The notes beneath the pieces were generated by a model that saw only the letters and a program-made list of their open reading frames with translations, had not been told where the DNA came from and did not search any database. The translations under genes were made by a program, and so were the position numbers. A stretch of DNA of 25,341 nt from a virus: UHGV virus genome UHGV-1632499, one strand, 5' to 3'. Shown here piece after piece: positions 12,575-25,341 of the stretch (position 1 is its first letter; the number at the start of each line of letters is the position of its first letter).

Positions 12575-14054
12575 CACCATTCCGTCGAATACGCTGGTTC
12601 CGCTGTTTTATGCGGAAATGGATAACCAGGCGGCGAATACTGCACAGGACAGCGGAGCATCGCTGCTGATTGGTCATGCCAATAACGGTGCAGAGATTGT
12701 TGCCAACAGTCTGGTACTGATGCCGTCGGCAGACTATGCACGCCAGATTTGTGGTGCGGGAAGTCAGCTGGCGCGTATGGTCGAGGCTTATCGCCAGACT
12801 GACCCGTTTGGCGAGCTGTATGTGATTGCCGTTCCTGAATCCACAGGCGCGGCGGCAACGGTTACGCTGACGGTGACCGGGGCGGCAACCGAAACCGGCA
12901 CGGTGAATGTGTATGTGGGACGTACCCGCGTGCAGGCTCCGGTGACCAACGGCGATAACGTCACGACGATTGCCAGCAGTATCCAGGATGCCATCAATGC
13001 CGTTCCGGCCCTGCCGTTTACGGCTTCATCTTCGGCAGGCGTGGTCACACTGACCGCGCGTCATAAGGGGCTTTGCGGGAATGAAATTCCTGTCAGCCTC
13101 AATTACTACGGCTTTGGTGGGGGCGAAGTGCTGCCAGCGGGCGTACAGATTGCCGTGGCGACGGGTACCGCCGGAACGGGTGCTCCGGTTCTCACCGGCG
13201 CGGTGGCTGCAATGGCGGATGAGCCGTTTGATTATATCGGCCTGCCGTTCAACGACACGGCCTCCGTTAACACGCTGGTGACCGAGATGAACGATACCAG
13301 CGGTCGCTGGAGCTATGCGCGTCAGCTGTATGGTCATGTGTATACGGCAAAGATCGGCACGCTGTCAGAACTGGTGACCGCAGGTGACCAGTTTAACCAG
13401 CAGCACATTACCCTGGCGGGGTACGAAAAAGAGACTCAGACGCCTGCCGACGAACTGGCGGCAAGCCGTACCGCCCGCGCAGCGGTGTTTATTCGCAACG
13501 ATCCGGCACGTCCCACGCAGACCGGTGAGCTGGTGGGTATGCTGCCTGCGCCGAAGGGGAAACGGTTCACGATGACCGAACAACAGACCCTGCTGTCTCA
13601 TGGCGTGGCAACGGCGTATGTCGAAAGCGGGGTACTGCGCATTCAGCGTGATGTCACCACGTACAGGAAAAACGCTTACGGGGTTGCGGATAACAGCTAC
13701 CTAGACAGTGAGACTCTGCATACCAGCGCGTATGTACTGCGCAAACTGAAATCCGTCATTACCAGTAAGTACGGGCGTCACAAGCTTGCCAGTGACGGTA
13801 CCCGCTTTGGTCCCGGTCAGGCGATTGTCACCCCGGCGGTGATCAAAGGGGAACTGCTGGCAACCTACCGTCAGCTTGAGCGTGCGGGGATCGTGGAAAA
13901 CTACGAACTGTTTAAGCAGTACCTGGTTGTGGAGCGTGATGCCAGCGATCCGAACCGCCTGAACACGCTGTTCCCGCCTGACTATGTTAACCAGTTGCGT
14001 GTCTTTGCCGTGGTTAACCAGTTCCGTCTTCAGTATTCAGAGGAGTCCGCATAA
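12558..14054 (+). CDS. Contractile tail sheath protein (Mu gpL-like)
   Basis: 498 aa, directly upstream of the tube gene; size and order typical of Mu-like myovirus tails. Confidence 0.85.
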   Translation: MTISFNTIPSNTLVPLFYAEMDNQAANTAQDSGASLLIGHANNGAEIVANSLVLMPSADYARQICGAGSQLARMVEAYRQTDPFGELYVIAVPESTGAAATVTLTVTGAATETGTVNVYVGRTRVQAPVTNGDNVTTIASSIQDAINAVPALPFTASSSAGVVTLTARHKGLCGNEIPVSLNYYGFGGGEVLPAGVQIAVATGTAGTGAPVLTGAVAAMADEPFDYIGLPFNDTASVNTLVTEMNDTSGRWSYARQLYGHVYTAKIGTLSELVTAGDQFNQQHITLAGYEKETQTPADELAASRTARAAVFIRNDPARPTQTGELVGMLPAPKGKRFTMTEQQTLLSHGVATAYVESGVLRIQRDVTTYRKNAYGVADNSYLDSETLHTSAYVLRKLKSVITSKYGRHKLASDGTRFGPGQAIVTPAVIKGELLATYRQLERAGIVENYELFKQYLVVERDASDPNRLNTLFPPDYVNQLRVFAVVNQFRLQYSEESA

Positions 14055-19647: not shown

Positions 19648-20195
19648 TGAGGACGATTGAAGCCATGCAGCGACAACTTCTCGGCCTGATTGGGCGGGCA
19701 GTGGTGAAAAGCATCAGTGCCGCCACGAAATGTCAGACCGTGGATGTGTCCCTGATTGCCGGTGAACCCAAAGCCGGGGTTGAACATCTTGAACCCTACG
19801 GTTTTACCGCAAGGGCAAACAGCGGTGCGGAAGCGGTGGTGTTGTTTCCGGATGGCGACCGTTCTCATGCGGTGGTTGTTACGGTGTCGGACCGGCGCTA
19901 CCGCCTGAAAGGGCTGCAGACGGGTGAGGTGGCTGTCTATGACGATCAGGGGCAGTCCGTGACGCTGACCCGGGAGGGGATCGTGGTGGACGGTGCTGGT
20001 AAAACGATCACGTTTCGCAATTCACCTAAAGCACGTTTTGAAATGGACATGGAAGTGACAGGACAGGTGAAAGACCTGTGCGACTCCGGCGGCACCACCA
20101 TGTCAGCGATGCGGCTTGCCTATAACGGGCATCGTCACAGAGAGAACGGTCAGGGCAGTAACACCGACAAACCTGATAAAGCGATGGAGGCATGA
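19647..20195 (+). CDS. Baseplate assembly protein (gpV/gp45-like spike)
   Basis: 182 aa, translationally coupled in the baseplate block. Confidence 0.75.
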   Translation: MRTIEAMQRQLLGLIGRAVVKSISAATKCQTVDVSLIAGEPKAGVEHLEPYGFTARANSGAEAVVLFPDGDRSHAVVVTVSDRRYRLKGLQTGEVAVYDDQGQSVTLTREGIVVDGAGKTITFRNSPKARFEMDMEVTGQVKDLCDSGGTTMSAMRLAYNGHRHRENGQGSNTDKPDKAMEA

Positions 20196-20620
20196 TGGAA
20201 CTGTGGCTGACGGTGAACGGTAAACGCACCTGCGCCAGCGCACCGCTGGATCCGCTGACCCGCGCCGTGGTGATTTCCCTGTTTACCTGGCGGCGGGCGG
20301 AGCCTGATGACAACGCCGACGTCCCGATGGGATGGTGGGGGGATACCTGGCCTGCGGTACAGAATGACCGTTACGGCTCCCGACTGTGGCTGCTTCAGCG
20401 CAGCAAACTGACCAATCAGCTGGTGCAGACGGTAAAGGAGTATATCCGCGAATGCCTGCAATGGATGATTGATGACGGCGTGGTGTCCCGTATTGATCTG
20501 GATATCCGCCGCACCGGGATTAATGAACTGGGTAACAGTATCACTCTCTGGCGTCGTGACGGACCGGTAATGATTTCTTTTGATGATCTGTGGAGTGCGA
20601 TAACGCATGGCGGACAGTGA
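20192..20620 (+). CDS. Baseplate protein (gp46/gpW-like)
   Basis: 142 aa, translationally coupled between the spike gene and the J-like gene. Confidence 0.75.
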   Translation: MMELWLTVNGKRTCASAPLDPLTRAVVISLFTWRRAEPDDNADVPMGWWGDTWPAVQNDRYGSRLWLLQRSKLTNQLVQTVKEYIRECLQWMIDDGVVSRIDLDIRRTGINELGNSITLWRRDGPVMISFDDLWSAITHGGQ

Positions 20621-21665
20621 ATTTCAGCGCCCGACGCTGGCAGAAAATATCAGTATGCTCCGTAACGATTTATTCGCCAGGCTGGACGTCAGCGACACGC
20701 TCCGGCGCATGGATGAAGACGTGCGGGCAAAGGTGTATGCGGCGGCGCTGCATACGGTTTACGGTTACATCGATTATCTGGCAATGAACATGCTGCCTGA
20801 CCTGTGCGATGAGTCCTGGCTGGCGCGACATGCTGCGATGAAACGGTGTCCGCGCAAGGGGGCCACGGCTGCCAGCGGGTATATGCGCTGGGAAGGTGTC
20901 AGCGATGGCCTGAAGGTGACCGCCGGGAGTGTTATTCAGCGCGATGACCTGGTTCAGTACACGGCAACTGCCGATGCAACCAGCTCCGGTGGTGTCCTGC
21001 GCGTGCCGATCGCCTGCTCAAGTGCAGGCGCGGTCGGTAACGCTGACGACGGTACGGCATTAATCCTGGTCACGCCGGTGAATGGTCTGCCGTCTTCCGG
21101 TGTGGCTGACACCCTGACAGGCGGATTTGATACTGAAGAGCTGGAAACGTGGCGCGCCCGCGTCATTGAGCGGTATTACTGGACGCCTCAGGGCGGGGCT
21201 GACGGGGACTATGTCGTCTGGGCTAAAGAAGTGCCCGGCATTACCCGCGCATGGACATACCGTCACTGGATGGGAACGGGAACTGTCGGTGTGATGATTG
21301 CCGGCAGTGACCTGATTAATCCCATTCCGGAAGAATCAATGGAAACGGCGGCAAGACAACATATCGGGCCACTGGCCCCGGTGGCAGGCTCTGATTTGTA
21401 TGTGTTCAGGCCGGTGGCACATACGGTGGATTTTCATATCCGCGTGACGCCGGACACACCGGAAATACGGGCTGCCATCACCGCGGAGTTGCGTTCGTTC
21501 CTGCTGCGTGATGGTTATCCGCAGGGAGAACTGAAGGTATCGCGTATCAGTGAGGCGATTTCCGGTGCGAACGGGGAATACAGCCATCAGTTGCTTGCAC
21601 CGGCAGACAATATCTCCATTGCAAAAAATGAACTGGCGGTACTGGGGACGATTTCATGGACGTGA
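20607..21665 (+). CDS. Baseplate J-like protein (gp47-like wedge)
   Basis: 352 aa, typical size and position for a baseplate J-family protein. Confidence 0.85.
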
Positions 21666-22240
21666 CAAACGATGATTACATCCGTCTGTTGTCGGCACTG
21701 TTGCCCCCCGGTCCGGCGTGGTCAGCCAGCGATCCGGCGATTGCCGGTGCGGCACCGTCATTAACCCGCGTTCATCAGCGTGCGGATGCCCTGATGCGGG
21801 AGCTGGATCCGCGCACCACCACTGAACTGATAAACCGCTGGGAGCGTCTGTGCGGTCTGCCGGATGAATGTATTCCGGCGGGAACGCAGACCCTTCGCCA
21901 GCGTCAGCAACGGCTGGATGCGAAGGTTAACCTGGCGGGCGGCATCAACGAGGATTTTTATCTTGCACAGCTTGCTGCCCTGGGCAGGCCAGATGCCACC
22001 ATCACGCGATACGACAAAAGCACCTTCACCTGCTCATCGGCCTGTACTGACGCGGTGAATGCGCCGGAATGGCGGTATTACTGGCAGGTCAACATGCCAG
22101 CCGCCACCAACACCATCTGGATGACATGTGGCGATCCCTGTGATTCCGCACTGCGTATCTGGGGGGACACCGTTGTCGAGTGCGTGCTTAACAAACTCTG
22201 CCCGTCGCATACCTACGTAATTTTTAAATATCCGGAGTAA
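21656..22240 (+). CDS. Tail protein (gp48/DUF2313-like) preceding the tail fibre
   Basis: 194 aa, Cys-rich C-terminal half, immediately upstream of the tail fibre gene. Confidence 0.75.
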
Positions 22241-22243
22241 TCC

Positions 22244-23029
22244 ATGCATCGTATAGACACGAAAACCGCGCAGAAGGATAAGTTCGGCGCGGGTAAGAAC
22301 GGTTTTACCCGTGGTAACCCCCAGACCGGCACACCTGCCACCGATCTGGATGATGACTACTTTGACATGTTGCAGGAAGAACTCTGCAGCGTGGTGGAGG
22401 CATCCGGTGCCAGCCTGGAGAAGGGGCGGCATGACCAGCTGCTTACCGCGCTTCGTGCGCTGCTGTTAAGCCGCAAGAATCCGTTTGGCGATATCAAATC
22501 GGATGGCACTGTGCAAACGGCTCTCGAAAACCTTGGTTTGGGAGAAGGCTCAGCGTTACCCGTTGGTGTGCCTGTTCCGTGGCCTTCAGCCACACCACCA
22601 ACAGGCTGGCTGAAATGCAACGGTGCACCTTTTTCTGCCGAAGAGTACCCAAAACTGGCAAAGGCTTACCCAAAGTTAAAATTACCGGATTTGCGCGGTG
22701 AGTTTATTCGCGGGTGGGATGATGGGCGAGGTGTTGATTCCGCGAGACTGCTACTTTCAAGTCAGGCGGCATCTATCCTTGAACATAACCATGAAATGCA
22801 TGGATGGACAGGGAACCCACTCATGGCTAGAGATGTTTATTCATCCGGTTCATCCGTATTTGCGGTGCAGTTGAGCATTGGCGATGGCGGGTTATTGTAT
22901 TCGTGGAAGGATGGGAGTGGAACAACAAATGACAGTAAACGAATGGATAGAACAAATCATGTCAGTTCCGGCGCCGGTGATGGTAGCCCGCGAAACATTG
23001 CATTTAACTACATTGTGAGGGCTGCATAA
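22244..23029 (+). CDS. Tail fibre protein: constant N-terminal part fused to the currently expressed variable C-terminal segment
   Basis: 261 aa, GGAG RBS. The C-terminal part carries GWLKCNGA...[19 protein letters not shown] and HNHEMHG motifs typical of phage fibre tips. A gix-like crossover site lies inside the gene at 22521-22546. Confidence 0.85.
22521..22546. other. Left recombination site for the serine invertase (hix/gix-like), inside the tail fibre gene
   Basis: CTCTCGAAAACC TT GGTTTGGGAGAA: 12-2-12 layout with the AAAACC/GGTTT core typical of Hin/Gin/Cin/Pin sites. The 15 bp on its inner side (TTGGTTTGGGAGAAG) are repeated in inverted orientation at 24404-24418. Confidence 0.6.
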
Positions 23030-23632
23030 ATGGAACAGGCTATTTTGGGAAAAGACGGTTACGCTTTAAATGATGGGGAAATCATCGTACATAACTATGA
23101 TGGCGAAACGCGGGAATATATTTCCACATCAACTGAATATCTTGCGGTTGGCGTCGGTATCCCGGCATGTTCTTGTTTAGATGCACCAGTTACACATAAA
23201 GCTGGTTATGCAATCTGCCGTTCTGCAGATTTTAACTCATGGGAATATGTGCCAGACCATCGCGGTGAAATCATCTATAGCACCGAAACAGGAGAATCGA
23301 AAGAAATCACAGCTCCGGGTGATTACCCTGATAATACAACCACTATCGCCCCGTTAACGCCATATGATAAATGGGATGGTGAGAAATGGGTGACGGATAC
23401 TGAGGCACAGCATAGTGCCGCAGTAGACGCGGCAGAAGTAAAGCGCCAGTCACTGATTGATGCAGCAATGGCTTCCATTAGTCTGATTCAGCTGAAATTA
23501 CAGGCCGGGCGGAAACTGACGCAGGCAGAAACAACCCGGCTTAACGCTGTGCTGGATTACATTGACGCGGTGGCGGCAACAGATACCAGCACCGCGCCGG
23601 ATGTCATCTGGCCTGAACTGCCGGAGGCGTAG
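23030..23632 (+). CDS. tfa: Tail fibre assembly protein (chaperone for the current fibre variant)
   Basis: 200 aa, start adjacent to the fibre stop, conserved Tfa-type C-terminus (...TSTAPDVIWPELPEA). Confidence 0.85.
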   Translation: MEQAILGKDGYALNDGEIIVHNYDGETREYISTSTEYLAVGVGIPACSCLDAPVTHKAGYAICRSADFNSWEYVPDHRGEIIYSTETGESKEITAPGDYPDNTTTIAPLTPYDKWDGEKWVTDTEAQHSAAVDAAEVKRQSLIDAAMASISLIQLKLQAGRKLTQAETTRLNAVLDYIDAVAATDTSTAPDVIWPELPEA

Positions 23633-24044
23633 GCCATTCAATATCTGGCGCACCGGAAGTATCGACCAGTTCCAGTGCGTCCAGATAATCCAGCCACAAA
23701 TTATATTGCGCCAGTTCCTCACCTTTCAGCCGGCCAATAGCCGCTTTACCAGGCCATTGTTTACTGTTCATATAATCGTTGGCCTGATTAATCAGTTGCT
23801 GCTTTTCCAGTTCGGCTGCAGCAATCTGTTCCTCATGTGTTGGTGGTGGAATTTCAGACCATGCAGGAAAACCATTTTCTCCAGCGATACGGATTTTTCC
23901 TTTCGGCGGTAATCCGGAAAACTCAATATACACTTGCTCATCAACTTCAACAGCATCATCTGGCCATGAGTCAGCTTGAGTGTAATCCTCTTTCATCTCC
24001 AGCGGATAGAAAGAGTTTGTAGTCGCGGAATATATGTAATTCAT
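23604..24044 (-). CDS. tfa: Alternative tail fibre assembly protein (chaperone for the inverted-orientation fibre)
   Basis: 146 aa on the minus strand with the same C-terminal motif (...TSGAPDIEWPTPPAVQAR). GGAGTG RBS. Its 3' end overlaps the + strand tfa by 29 nt. Confidence 0.85.
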   Translation of the reverse strand: MNYIYSATTNSFYPLEMKEDYTQADSWPDDAVEVDEQVYIEFSGLPPKGKIRIAGENGFPAWSEIPPPTHEEQIAAAELEKQQLINQANDYMNSKQWPGKAAIGRLKGEELAQYNLWLDYLDALELVDTSGAPDIEWPTPPAVQAR

Positions 24045-24065
24045 TTTTCACTCCATATAGCTAAA

Positions 24066-24416
24066 TTAACAGCCTAACGCTAAAAATGAAGCGCCGAGGC
24101 CAGGAGTACTGGCTCTGGATATAAATTTAACCGGGTCGGGACTAAAACCTGCACAGGCAATATAACCAACAGCCCCGCTATCTGGTGTGTAGTCTTGTGA
24201 GACCAAAACACGCAGACATCTGTTTGGAAATGCAATCGGGAAATGGGTTACTACATCCTGTGCAATGCCTGGTGCGCCGATTGAGCCCCACTGAAGAATA
24301 AAACCTGATGGTAATTTTTGATATCCAGTACCTGAAACAGAAAGCGTGAAGCTACCCATATCAGGTATCTGATTCGCCCCTGTCCCTACATTCCTTTTAG
24401 CCGCTTCTCCCAAACC
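24066..24416 (-). CDS. Alternative tail fibre variable C-terminal segment; promoterless, expressed only after inversion
   Basis: The minus-strand frame is open from the crossover core to the stop at 24066. After inversion it would continue in frame from the constant fibre part (...NLGLGE shared, then [19 protein letters not shown]...). ORF track lists 24066..24413. Confidence 0.7.
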
Positions 24417-24430
24417 AACCTTTCAAATAT
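24405..24430. other. Right recombination site for the serine invertase (hix/gix-like)
   Basis: Minus-strand reading ATATTTGAAAGG TT GGTTTGGGAGAA; the inner half-site and core match the left site, the outer half-site differs. Confidence 0.55.
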
Positions 24431-24457
24431 TTTTCTGAATCAGGTGATATTTCGCCT

Positions 24458-24484
24458 CTTCTCCTGTTTTTACAACAGGAGAAG
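24458..24484. promoter_or_regulatory. Perfect 27-bp palindrome overlapping the invertase RBS; candidate operator or RBS-occluding hairpin
   Basis: CTTCTCCTGTT TTTAC AACAGGAGAAG: 11-bp perfect arms. The 3' arm contains the AGGAG Shine-Dalgarno, 5 nt before the invertase ATG at 24490. Confidence 0.4.
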
Positions 24485-24489
24485 CACTC

Positions 24490-25053
24490 ATGATTTACGG
24501 GTATGTTCGTGTATCAACAAATCATCAGGATACAGAGTTGCAACGTCTTGCACTTGAGTCAGCTGGCTGTGAGCGAATTTATGAAGAATATGCCAGTGGC
24601 AGAACAGCTAATCGCCCTGTGTTAAAGGAATTAATTTCGGTGATGAAAAGTGGAGATGAGTTGATTGTCTGGAAGCTAGATCGGATAGGGAGAAATGTGC
24701 TACATGCGCTATTGATGTTTCAAAATCTGCACGAAAAAGGCGTTAATTTTCGGAGTATTACAGATGGCGTAGACCTGAAAACAGCAAGTGGTCGCTATAA
24801 TTTCCGTAATATTCTTTCTGCTGCGCAGTATGAATCTGATTTGAATAGCGAGCGAACTTTAGCTGGTTTGGCTATTGCCAGATCCAAAGGCCGGATTGGT
24901 GGGCGTAGACCGAAGTTTAGCGACGAGCAGTGGCAACAGATGGGAGCGCTCATAGCGGCAGGGAAATCACGGCGTTATGTTGCACGTATCTATAACGTTG
25001 GGCTATCAACCCTATATAAACGATTTCCTGTTACTGGCATTCAAACGAAATAA
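24490..25053 (+). CDS. pin: Site-specific serine recombinase, DNA invertase (Pin/Gin/Hin/Cin family)
   Basis: 187 aa with YVRVST (catalytic Ser), VWKLDRIGR, NFRSITD, GRIGGRRPK and a C-terminal helix-turn-helix ending STLYKRF; collinear with Gin/Hin as I recall them. Adjacent to the invertible fibre segment. Confidence 0.95.
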   Translation: MIYGYVRVSTNHQDTELQRLALESAGCERIYEEYASGRTANRPVLKELISVMKSGDELIVWKLDRIGRNVLHALLMFQNLHEKGVNFRSITDGVDLKTASGRYNFRNILSAAQYESDLNSERTLAGLAIARSKGRIGGRRPKFSDEQWQQMGALIAAGKSRRYVARIYNVGLSTLYKRFPVTGIQTK

Positions 25054-25093
25054 TTTAAAAGCAATTTAAAGAGTTATTTGTCTAATGTTGGAA

Positions 25094-25129
25094 GCCGCAG
25101 CCACGTCGTATGCAAGAACGTGCTGCGGC
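25094..25129. terminator. Imperfect hairpin between convergent pin and the dinI-like gene; candidate bidirectional terminator
   Basis: GCCGCAGCCACG ... CGTGCTGCGGC, an imperfect inverted repeat in the intergenic space between convergent genes. No clear U-tract. Confidence 0.3.
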
Positions 25130-25196
25130 TGGCTGGCGAACTTTCGATAGTGCGAGTATTGAATGATTTCCAGCCGTTACCGATTTTACGTGTTAA

Positions 25197-25341
25197 TTAG
25201 TGAACAAACCACTCGTCAGCAGATTCCCAGGTATCTTTCAGAGTCTCCTGAACAAAAGTTTTTGCAGAATCCTTATCTGCGGTGCGTGTAACAGAAAGGC
25301 CATCGTTGCTGGTGGCTTTTACGATCACCTCTACATCGTCA
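25197..25341 (-). CDS. dinI: DinI-family protein (DNA-damage-inducible protein I-like), 3' part only; truncated by the window edge
   Basis: The minus-strand frame ends ...[31 protein letters not shown], matching the DinI C-terminal motif (...ILQETWESADDWFV...) as I recall it. The start lies beyond the window. Confidence 0.7.

Follow-up and report, generated by a model that had tools for sequence, protein, structure and literature searches.

Since Mu, P1 and e14, invertible tail-fibre segments have belonged to textbook knowledge. For the P segment of e14, two coexisting orientations were detected in clonal K-12 cultures by whole-genome sequencing and the polymerase chain reaction (PCR) (PMC4272514), inversion at the repeat has also been demonstrated by quantitative PCR (PMC4272514; PMC12529663), and this inversion occurs at 5'-TTGGTTTGGGAGAAGG-3' / 5'-CCTTCTCCCAAACCAA-3' under PinE or PinQ (PMC12529663). 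Here we describe a homologous tail-fibre locus in the virus genome UHGV-1632499 (25,341 nucleotides (nt); "the window" below means this whole stretch of DNA). We think that the region is very probably a switch that works by site-specific inversion, like those of e14 P, Mu G and P1 C. It lies where the tail operon ends, in an SfV/SfII-like prophage beside dusA.

The e14 P segment (ymfQ-stfP-tfaP-tfaE-stfE-pinE) is the gene-for-gene homologue of the window locus, with the invertase gene in the same place. The constant part of the fibre gene is 98% identical between the two in nucleotides, up to the crossover site; there is no difference in the left site or in the inner half of the right one, and both loci carry the same two classes of fibre tip (gp53-like and Collar), each with its own Tfa chaperone. 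The Collar tip of the window resembles the e14 stfE pseudogene (85% identical), which has the opposite orientation in K-12, and its chaperone shows 87% nucleotide identity to e14 tfaE; the segment as a whole is oriented opposite to the K-12 reference. At both ends, the repeat of the window matches the verified e14 repeat TTGGTTTGGGAGAAGG at 15 of 16 nt. The two loci nevertheless differ in several respects. e14 is a cryptic remnant, whereas the window is an apparently complete SfV-like prophage at dusA; the window invertase is only 56% identical to PinE, and is accompanied by another right outer half-site (ATATTTGAAAGG versus TTTTCATAAACG) and another 5' leader; finally, stfE of K-12 e14 is annotated with a start outside the right site, whereas the silent tip of the window has no such start.

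The organisation of the fibre gene is that of such a switch (Table 1). A constant part lies outside the segment and two opposed 3' parts, both in frame with it, lie inside. The present open reading frame (ORF; 22244-23029) encodes a fibre of 261 amino acids (aa) with a Collar tip. The core TT of the left site (22533-22534) sits in its codon 97 (CTT), in keeping with the original prediction, which had put this site after about codon 97, and the site lies within the reading frame, where it encodes ...N-L-G-L-G-E. Inversion in silico between the two cores yields an in-frame fibre of 213 aa with a gp53-like tip. The two fibres have residues 1-101 in common (through ...ENLGLGE), and the inverted one then continues as AAKRNVGTG... 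for 112 more residues, to a stop at 24066-24068. The in-frame fusion had been predicted in these terms (NLGLGE, then AAKRNVGTG for more than 110 aa and a stop at 24066), and the 213-aa ORF, with its 112 residues beyond E101, reproduces it. Equally correct was the proposal that each variable segment has an assembly chaperone of its own, since two convergent PF02413 genes were found, one for each tip. These two tfa genes converge in the middle of the segment, with a 29-nt overlap of their 3' ends (23604-23632).

Table 1. Features of the probable fibre switch and of the adjoining invertase gene, in window coordinates
Feature	Position	Strand	Remarks
Constant 5' fibre part, codons 1-96	22244-22532	+	outside the segment; directly after the gp48/YmfQ-like gene
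Left crossover site	22521-22546		CTCTCGAAAACC TT GGTTTGGGAGAA; core 22533-22534; dyad 9/12
Invertible segment between cores	22535-24416		1882 bp; 1886 bp with both cores
Tip A, at present fused to the constant part	22547-23029	+	Collar domain PF07484, E 8e-15
Tip A chaperone, TfaE-like, 200 aa	23030-23632	+	PF02413 (Caudo_TAP), E 1.2e-31
Tip B chaperone, 146 aa	23604-24044	-	PF02413 (Caudo_TAP), E 8.4e-38
Tip B, at present silent	24066-24403	-	gp53-like C-terminal domain PF21882, E 3.6e-15
Right crossover site	24405-24430		reverse complement ATATTTGAAAGG TT GGTTTGGGAGAA; core 24417-24418; dyad 5/12
Invertase leader, two hairpins	24442-24484	+	fold -24 kcal/mol, z -3.7
Small serine DNA invertase, 187 aa	24490-25053	+	PF00239 Resolvase_N, E 2e-36; PF02796 HTH_7, E 7e-12

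The constant part is expressed from the late tail operon and shows 97-98% identity to e14 stfP, to SfII, to SKA5 and to many E. coli prophages, up to 22547. The silent cassette, on the other hand, has neither a start nor a promoter of its own, and it is not translatable from the invertase side because a TGA at 24423-24425 (minus strand), located in the right outer half-site, closes its frame. No sigma-70-like promoter above chance was found within the segment; more generally, a promoter and terminator scan of 21600-25341 gave counts no higher than in shuffled sequences, and no convincing promoter for the invertase. NCBIfam offered no specific family for the invertase or for the fibre parts, only sub-threshold matches to XisF, Mpi and Ccr models.

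The segment is bounded by two inverted 26-bp sites, each an imperfect dyad around the same TT core, and the invertase gene lies directly outside one of its ends. The two sites, which had been predicted as hix/gix-like at precisely 22521-22546 and 24405-24430, are opposed in orientation and identical at 19 of 26 positions; they contain a perfect inverted repeat of 15 nt (TTGGTTTGGGAGAAG, 22533-22547 / 24404-24418), which extends to 20 nt at 90% identity. This 15-mer is present in exactly two copies in the window, one per strand, and by our own arithmetic perfect 15-nt inverted pairs are expected about 0.007 times per 3.8-kb stretch. The sole further match at up to three mismatches in the window, at 13114, is unrelated. 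A multi-inversion system of the p15B Min type is ruled out by this absence of a third crossover site at up to three mismatches to the 15-mer.

The left site has the same sequence in e14, in SKA5, in SfII and in four of the homologous loci that we fetched (L001, L003, L004 and L008), and together with the inner half of the right site it is identical across all relatives examined. The outer half of the right site, by contrast, follows the kind of invertase gene adjacent to it, reading TTTTCATAAACG next to pinE and ATATTTGAAAGG next to a gene of the window type (L002 5606-5617, L008, L034-L049). In the clade of the window invertase as a whole, AAAGG adjoins the core instead of AAACC. An alignment to known invertase sites had been suggested as a check on the prediction. 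By our own count, 20 of 26 positions agree between the left site and the annotated cixL of P1 (CAATCCTAAACC TT GGTTTAAGAGAA), which has the same TT core, annotated with the crossover between its two T. Mu, according to its record, has TTATCCAAAACC TC GGTTTACAGGAA and a partner site. Matches to hix and gix sequences served as a lead only, and the comparison rests on the sites given in the Mu and P1 records.

If the segment inverts, both arrangements should be found in nature, and this is the case among genomes, that is, at the population level. Junction queries were compared with 5,426 complete E. coli genomes and counted at a coverage of at least 80%. The inverted left junction (500 nt) was present in 381 genomes (best match 99.2%) and the present left junction (500 nt) in 512 (best 97.8%). 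For the right end, the inverted junction (600 nt), in which the Collar tip is joined to this very invertase gene, was present in 18 genomes (best 99.7%, in UTME-7), and the present junction (600 nt) in three (best 99.5%). L003 and L004 carry the inverted left junction as part of an annotated, fused gp53-like gene of 642 nt. Both loci are collinear with the inverted window over 20000-23600 (97.5-97.9% identity), whereas they align to the uninverted window in two pieces only, with breaks at 22547 and 24418. UTME-7 carries the same dusA prophage, with an invertase region 98.9% identical in DNA, and the same Collar cassette (93-99.7% identity) in the flipped position. The isolated phage SKA5, whose invertase is 99.5% identical, belongs to the opposite orientation class. 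A 100% identical invertase, followed through ten contexts, was found both with the Collar tip silent (L040, L045) and with the gp53-like tip silent (L042, L047). In all these relatives, the breakpoints of collinearity fall inside the 15-nt repeat (22533-22547 / 24404-24418), a pattern expected from site-specific and not from homologous exchange. Among the loci fetched, none had exactly the same two tip alleles in flipped arrangement, the cassettes being too mosaic for the pair to recur.

This mosaicism is visible in several ways. The 100% identical invertase protein occurs in 1740 index blocks, beside many different tip alleles. In L041, the same invertase is found in a different tail module (Phage_Wedge1), with TTCTCACATACC as the left outer half, and L043 and L044 are without recognisable sites, L043 with a single cassette. 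The tips behave like a mix-and-match library, with the crossover site as the joint. In several draft assemblies (L010, L011, L013, L019, L022, L027), contigs end at most a few hundred bases upstream of the invertase gene, at least three times in Kluyvera sichuanensis and also in Trabulsiella and Shimwellia; this is what assemblers do at segments that have two orientations or several copies. In SM107, the closest complete E. coli genome (L001 1744-2265), the expressed fibre is annotated as a pseudogene ("missing C-terminus"), while the silent tip has a gp53-like gene annotation of its own; automated annotation misses the switch.

The enzyme encoded next to the segment is a small serine recombinase, with a catalytic Ser/Arg domain followed by a C-terminal helix-turn-helix. 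Its ORF is intact, R7, S9, R42 and R65 are conserved, and its alignment with the Gin structure 3uj3 covers the full length (E 8.5e-57). It shares with PinE both the minor-groove arm GGRRPK and the recognition helix STLYK. Judging from its sequence, however, which is no more than about 55% identical to Gin and PinE, it is not an orthologue of PinE, Gin or Cin; it belongs to a clade that is widespread among enterobacteria, with relatives at 65-82% identity in Kluyvera, Trabulsiella, Shimwellia, Morganella, Erwinia and Citrobacter. We compared 13 genes of this clade, including that of the window and representing at least eight genera, with seven classical genes (gin, pinE, cin, pro483, Kp4870-2, Tongde and YpM_44).

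The comparison concerns the activation of the enzyme by Fis bound to a recombinational enhancer. Classical genes contain, towards their 5' end, a pair of Fis sites with a spacing of about 48 bp. Such a pair was not found in the window at the canonical position (nt 19-90, as annotated in cin), and an enhancer could lie elsewhere. Sites I and II are kept in all seven classical genes, with G(-7) and C(+7) present, whereas in the clade G(-7) of site II is lost in 13 of 13 genes and C(+7) in five of 13. The score behind these counts is a heuristic one, a crude count of consensus positions which recovers the annotated cin enhancer and its equivalents in gin and pinE, and which weak or relocated sites can escape; Fis sites are in any case degenerate. 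Where Ser24 is present, its codon is AGY in the classical genes, which keeps the G, and TCA in the window. Synonymous-codon identity over codons 22-36 rises in the classical genes (0.60, versus 0.45 overall) and does not in the clade (0.42-0.45, versus 0.43 overall); as the signal of this positive control is itself modest, the lack of a rise in the clade is weak evidence.

The protein tells a similar story. In Hin, activation by Fis and the enhancer involves basic residues at 47, 48 and 51 together with Q151, R154 and L155, and Hin-R154A is almost inactive for Fis-activated inversion (PMC3798978). The window invertase has K46, E47, S50, Q150, A153 and L154 at the corresponding positions (Gin numbering), so that three of the six activation residues of Hin (at E47, S50 and A153) are not kept, and five of the six positions vary across the clade. 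Among its 13 genes, position 50 is basic in one, R153 is kept in five and L154 in four. In the seven classical genes, positions 47, 50, 150, 153 and 154 are all conserved and position 46 is K in six, with D in YpM_44.

The same applies to helix E, where the classical motif GRFFFHVM..L..EM (Phe104-106, His107, Met109 and Leu112 of Hin) was not recovered: the window and all 119 of 119 aligned homologues (at least 77% identity) have GRYNFRNILSAAQY, in place of the GRFFFHVMGALAEM of the classical enzymes. Asn occupies the position of Hin F105 in the clade, which also differs at those of H107, M109 and L112. It differs furthermore at three of five pocket residues, L67, L77 and I78 being replaced by I, by M or T, and by F. 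The substitution F105N renders inversion by Hin Fis-independent and strong hyperactivating mutations of Hin map to the five pocket residues (PMC4513852); H107Y is hyperactive as well. Three defining features of the Fis/enhancer-dependent subclass were looked for in the window invertase and none was found as in the classical enzymes, and on this sequence evidence it should not be filed there. The original assignment to a switch of the Gin/Pin type is borne out by the architecture, with all its structural elements intact and all five features that were looked for present, whereas the invertase lacks the Fis/enhancer hallmarks of the classical Hin/Gin/Cin/Pin subclass.

These observations suggest that the gating of the clade differs from the classical Fis/enhancer route. 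One could go further, and suppose that the clade represents natural invertases that are enhancer-independent or otherwise gated and have given up classical Fis/enhancer control, a hairpin over the Shine-Dalgarno sequence limiting expression instead; we offer this as a tentative idea, which we would not at present favour. The hairpin in question is the second of the two in the leader (24458-24484), with a stem of 11-12 bp in which the Shine-Dalgarno AGGAG is paired with an upstream complementary sequence. The leader is nearly invariant in six other loci from five genera (Kluyvera, Trabulsiella, Pseudocitrobacter, Shimwellia and Apirhabdus), its changes including one compensatory pair (C-G to U-A) and one change from C-G to U-G. 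Rfam gave nothing in the whole window at gathering thresholds and nothing for the leader at E up to 1. The leader can also be read, at the DNA level, as a palindrome of 25 bp, TTCTCC-N13-GGAGAA. At its ends this palindrome is similar to the outer hexamers of the crossover site, and it is possibly a binding site for the invertase.

How the switch would operate can be proposed by analogy with Hin and Gin (PMC3798978, PMC4513852). Transcription of the fibre gene, which has its first 96-97 codons outside the segment, comes from the late operon. Dimers of the 187-aa invertase would bind to both 26-bp sites and bring them into synapsis; both strands of each site would then be cut at the central TT/AA, with a 2-nt stagger, through Ser9, and one pair of half-sites would be rotated by 180 degrees (subunit rotation) and religated. 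With an asymmetric core and sites in opposite orientation, inversion would be the only outcome that can be ligated. A population of lysogens would in this way release virions with either tip, and hence with two receptor specificities, a bet-hedging switch of host range as in Mu, P1 and carotovoricin. We infer that inversion takes place in the source strain and that it has such an effect on the host range.

Several points weigh against this reading. The canonical Fis enhancer and the Fis-contact residues are not conserved, and the classical route of activation may not apply to this enzyme. The outer half of the right site makes a poor dyad (5/12). Furthermore, other Pin-family invertases, which are usual in E. 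coli hosts, can flip such sites in trans; PinQ, for example, inverts the P segment of e14 (PMC12529663). The presence of both orientations in the population consequently does not prove that the enzyme encoded in cis is the active one.

A rival idea is that the switch is a frozen relic, with an inactive cis invertase, and that the differences in orientation reflect old events, homologous replacement of cassettes or Pin enzymes acting in trans. The tip cassettes are indeed strongly mosaic between genomes, some loci with the invertase are without a recognisable site or second cassette (L043, L044), SfII, SfV and SfI have a lone left site and no invertase, and a degenerate right outer half-site together with the missing canonical enhancer would fit low activity. 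We nevertheless find this idea very improbable, since the invertase ORF is intact, as are its catalytic residues, its DNA-binding motifs and the two sites, the repeat is perfect over its 15 nt, a 100% identical invertase is seen with both orientation classes and the breakpoints of the relatives fall exactly in the repeat. The comparative data already refute another objection, that the inverted repeat is a chance match and that the opposed fibre-like ORFs have nothing to do with each other. Perfect inverted pairs of 15 nt are expected about 0.3 times in 25 kb (again our own arithmetic), which in itself leaves some room for chance, but this pair encloses two cassettes of tip and chaperone beside an invertase gene, keeps the frame in either orientation, is the same as the e14 repeat at which inversion was verified and is conserved base for base in all the relatives examined.

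A switch that works could also serve the host rather than the phage, the fibre-like protein made by the lysogen masking a surface receptor against other phages. The precedent comes from e14 itself, in which inversion of the P segment by PinQ produces a chimeric Stf (StfE2) that blocks adsorption of T2 (PMC12529663), and the crossover repeat is the same here. StfE2 starts outside the right site, however, and in the window no equivalent can be made from the invertase side, where the TGA at 24423-24425 closes the frame; nor does the segment contain a sigma-70-like promoter above chance. Moreover, e14 is a cryptic remnant, whereas the head and tail set of the window looks complete and a close relative, SKA5, is an isolated phage. 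We consider a mainly host-protecting role very unlikely for these reasons.

The setting of the locus is that of an SfV/SfII/SfI-like temperate myovirus with a Mu-type tail, the window matching these phages at about 97% from 4.7 kb to 22547. The genes upstream of the switch include Baseplate_J and Mu gp48/YmfQ-like genes (Pfam), the head and tail gene set looks complete, and in close E. coli relatives the invertase gene is followed by a DinI-like gene, an integrase and dusA. The baseplate genes have a G+C content of about 57%, which declines to 42-49% across the invertible segment and invertase (22550-25341), and we conclude that the segment and the invertase form a mosaic module with a different origin.

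The switch itself is ordinary, and a near-identical arrangement is already in GenBank, in SKA5, where a DNA invertase is annotated with tail-fibre genes. Of some practical use are the exact coordinates for annotation, given that automated annotation treats the silent tip as a "gp53-like" gene in its own right and, in some relatives, the fused fibre as a pseudogene; so are the reminder that an assembly freezes one of the two states and the picture of the tips as an interchangeable library. The invertase clade is the more interesting lead, although moderately so. If its members really have no need of Fis or the enhancer, they would be a natural counterpart of the hyperactive mutants obtained in the laboratory, with a bearing on the gating of serine invertases and on their use in genome engineering.

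Beyond e14, the described systems compare with the window in different respects. Mu G (with Gin) and P1 C (with Cin) have the same architecture, Sc-[Sv U / U' Sv']-invertase, and their 26-bp sites, like those of the window, are built on AAACC NN GGTTT. The invertible segment of the window is shorter (1.9 kb, versus about 3 kb in Mu and 4.2 kb in P1), and its fibres (213 and 261 aa) are much shorter than those of Mu and P1. Its invertase shows 53-55% identity and can be aligned to the Gin structure 3uj3 over its full length, but the canonical enhancer (nt 19-90 of cin) is not kept, and the Fis-contact and helix-E switch residues differ. Hin and its hix sites, in Salmonella, belong to the same recombinase family and have the same site design; Hin, however, flips a promoter, whereas the switch of the window exchanges coding ends, and Hin strictly needs Fis and the enhancer, through K47, R48, K51, Q151, R154 and L155.

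The Shigella phages SfII, SfV, SfI and SfIV have heads, tails and a constant fibre part that are 97% identical to those of the window, with homology ending at 22547, the inner end of the left site, whose sequence they keep. Their short fibre is fixed, with a single tip and a single chaperone, and they have neither a right site nor an invertase. SfII carries a lone, identical left site inside its short tail-fibre gene (L006 1755-1780), so that the site also marks a module junction where no flipping is possible. SKA5 (OR670062.1), finally, has the same prophage type and the same sites as the window, together with the almost identical gene annotated as a DNA invertase. It expresses a fibre of the gp53 type (215 aa), and its tip alleles differ from those of the window (83-94% identity).

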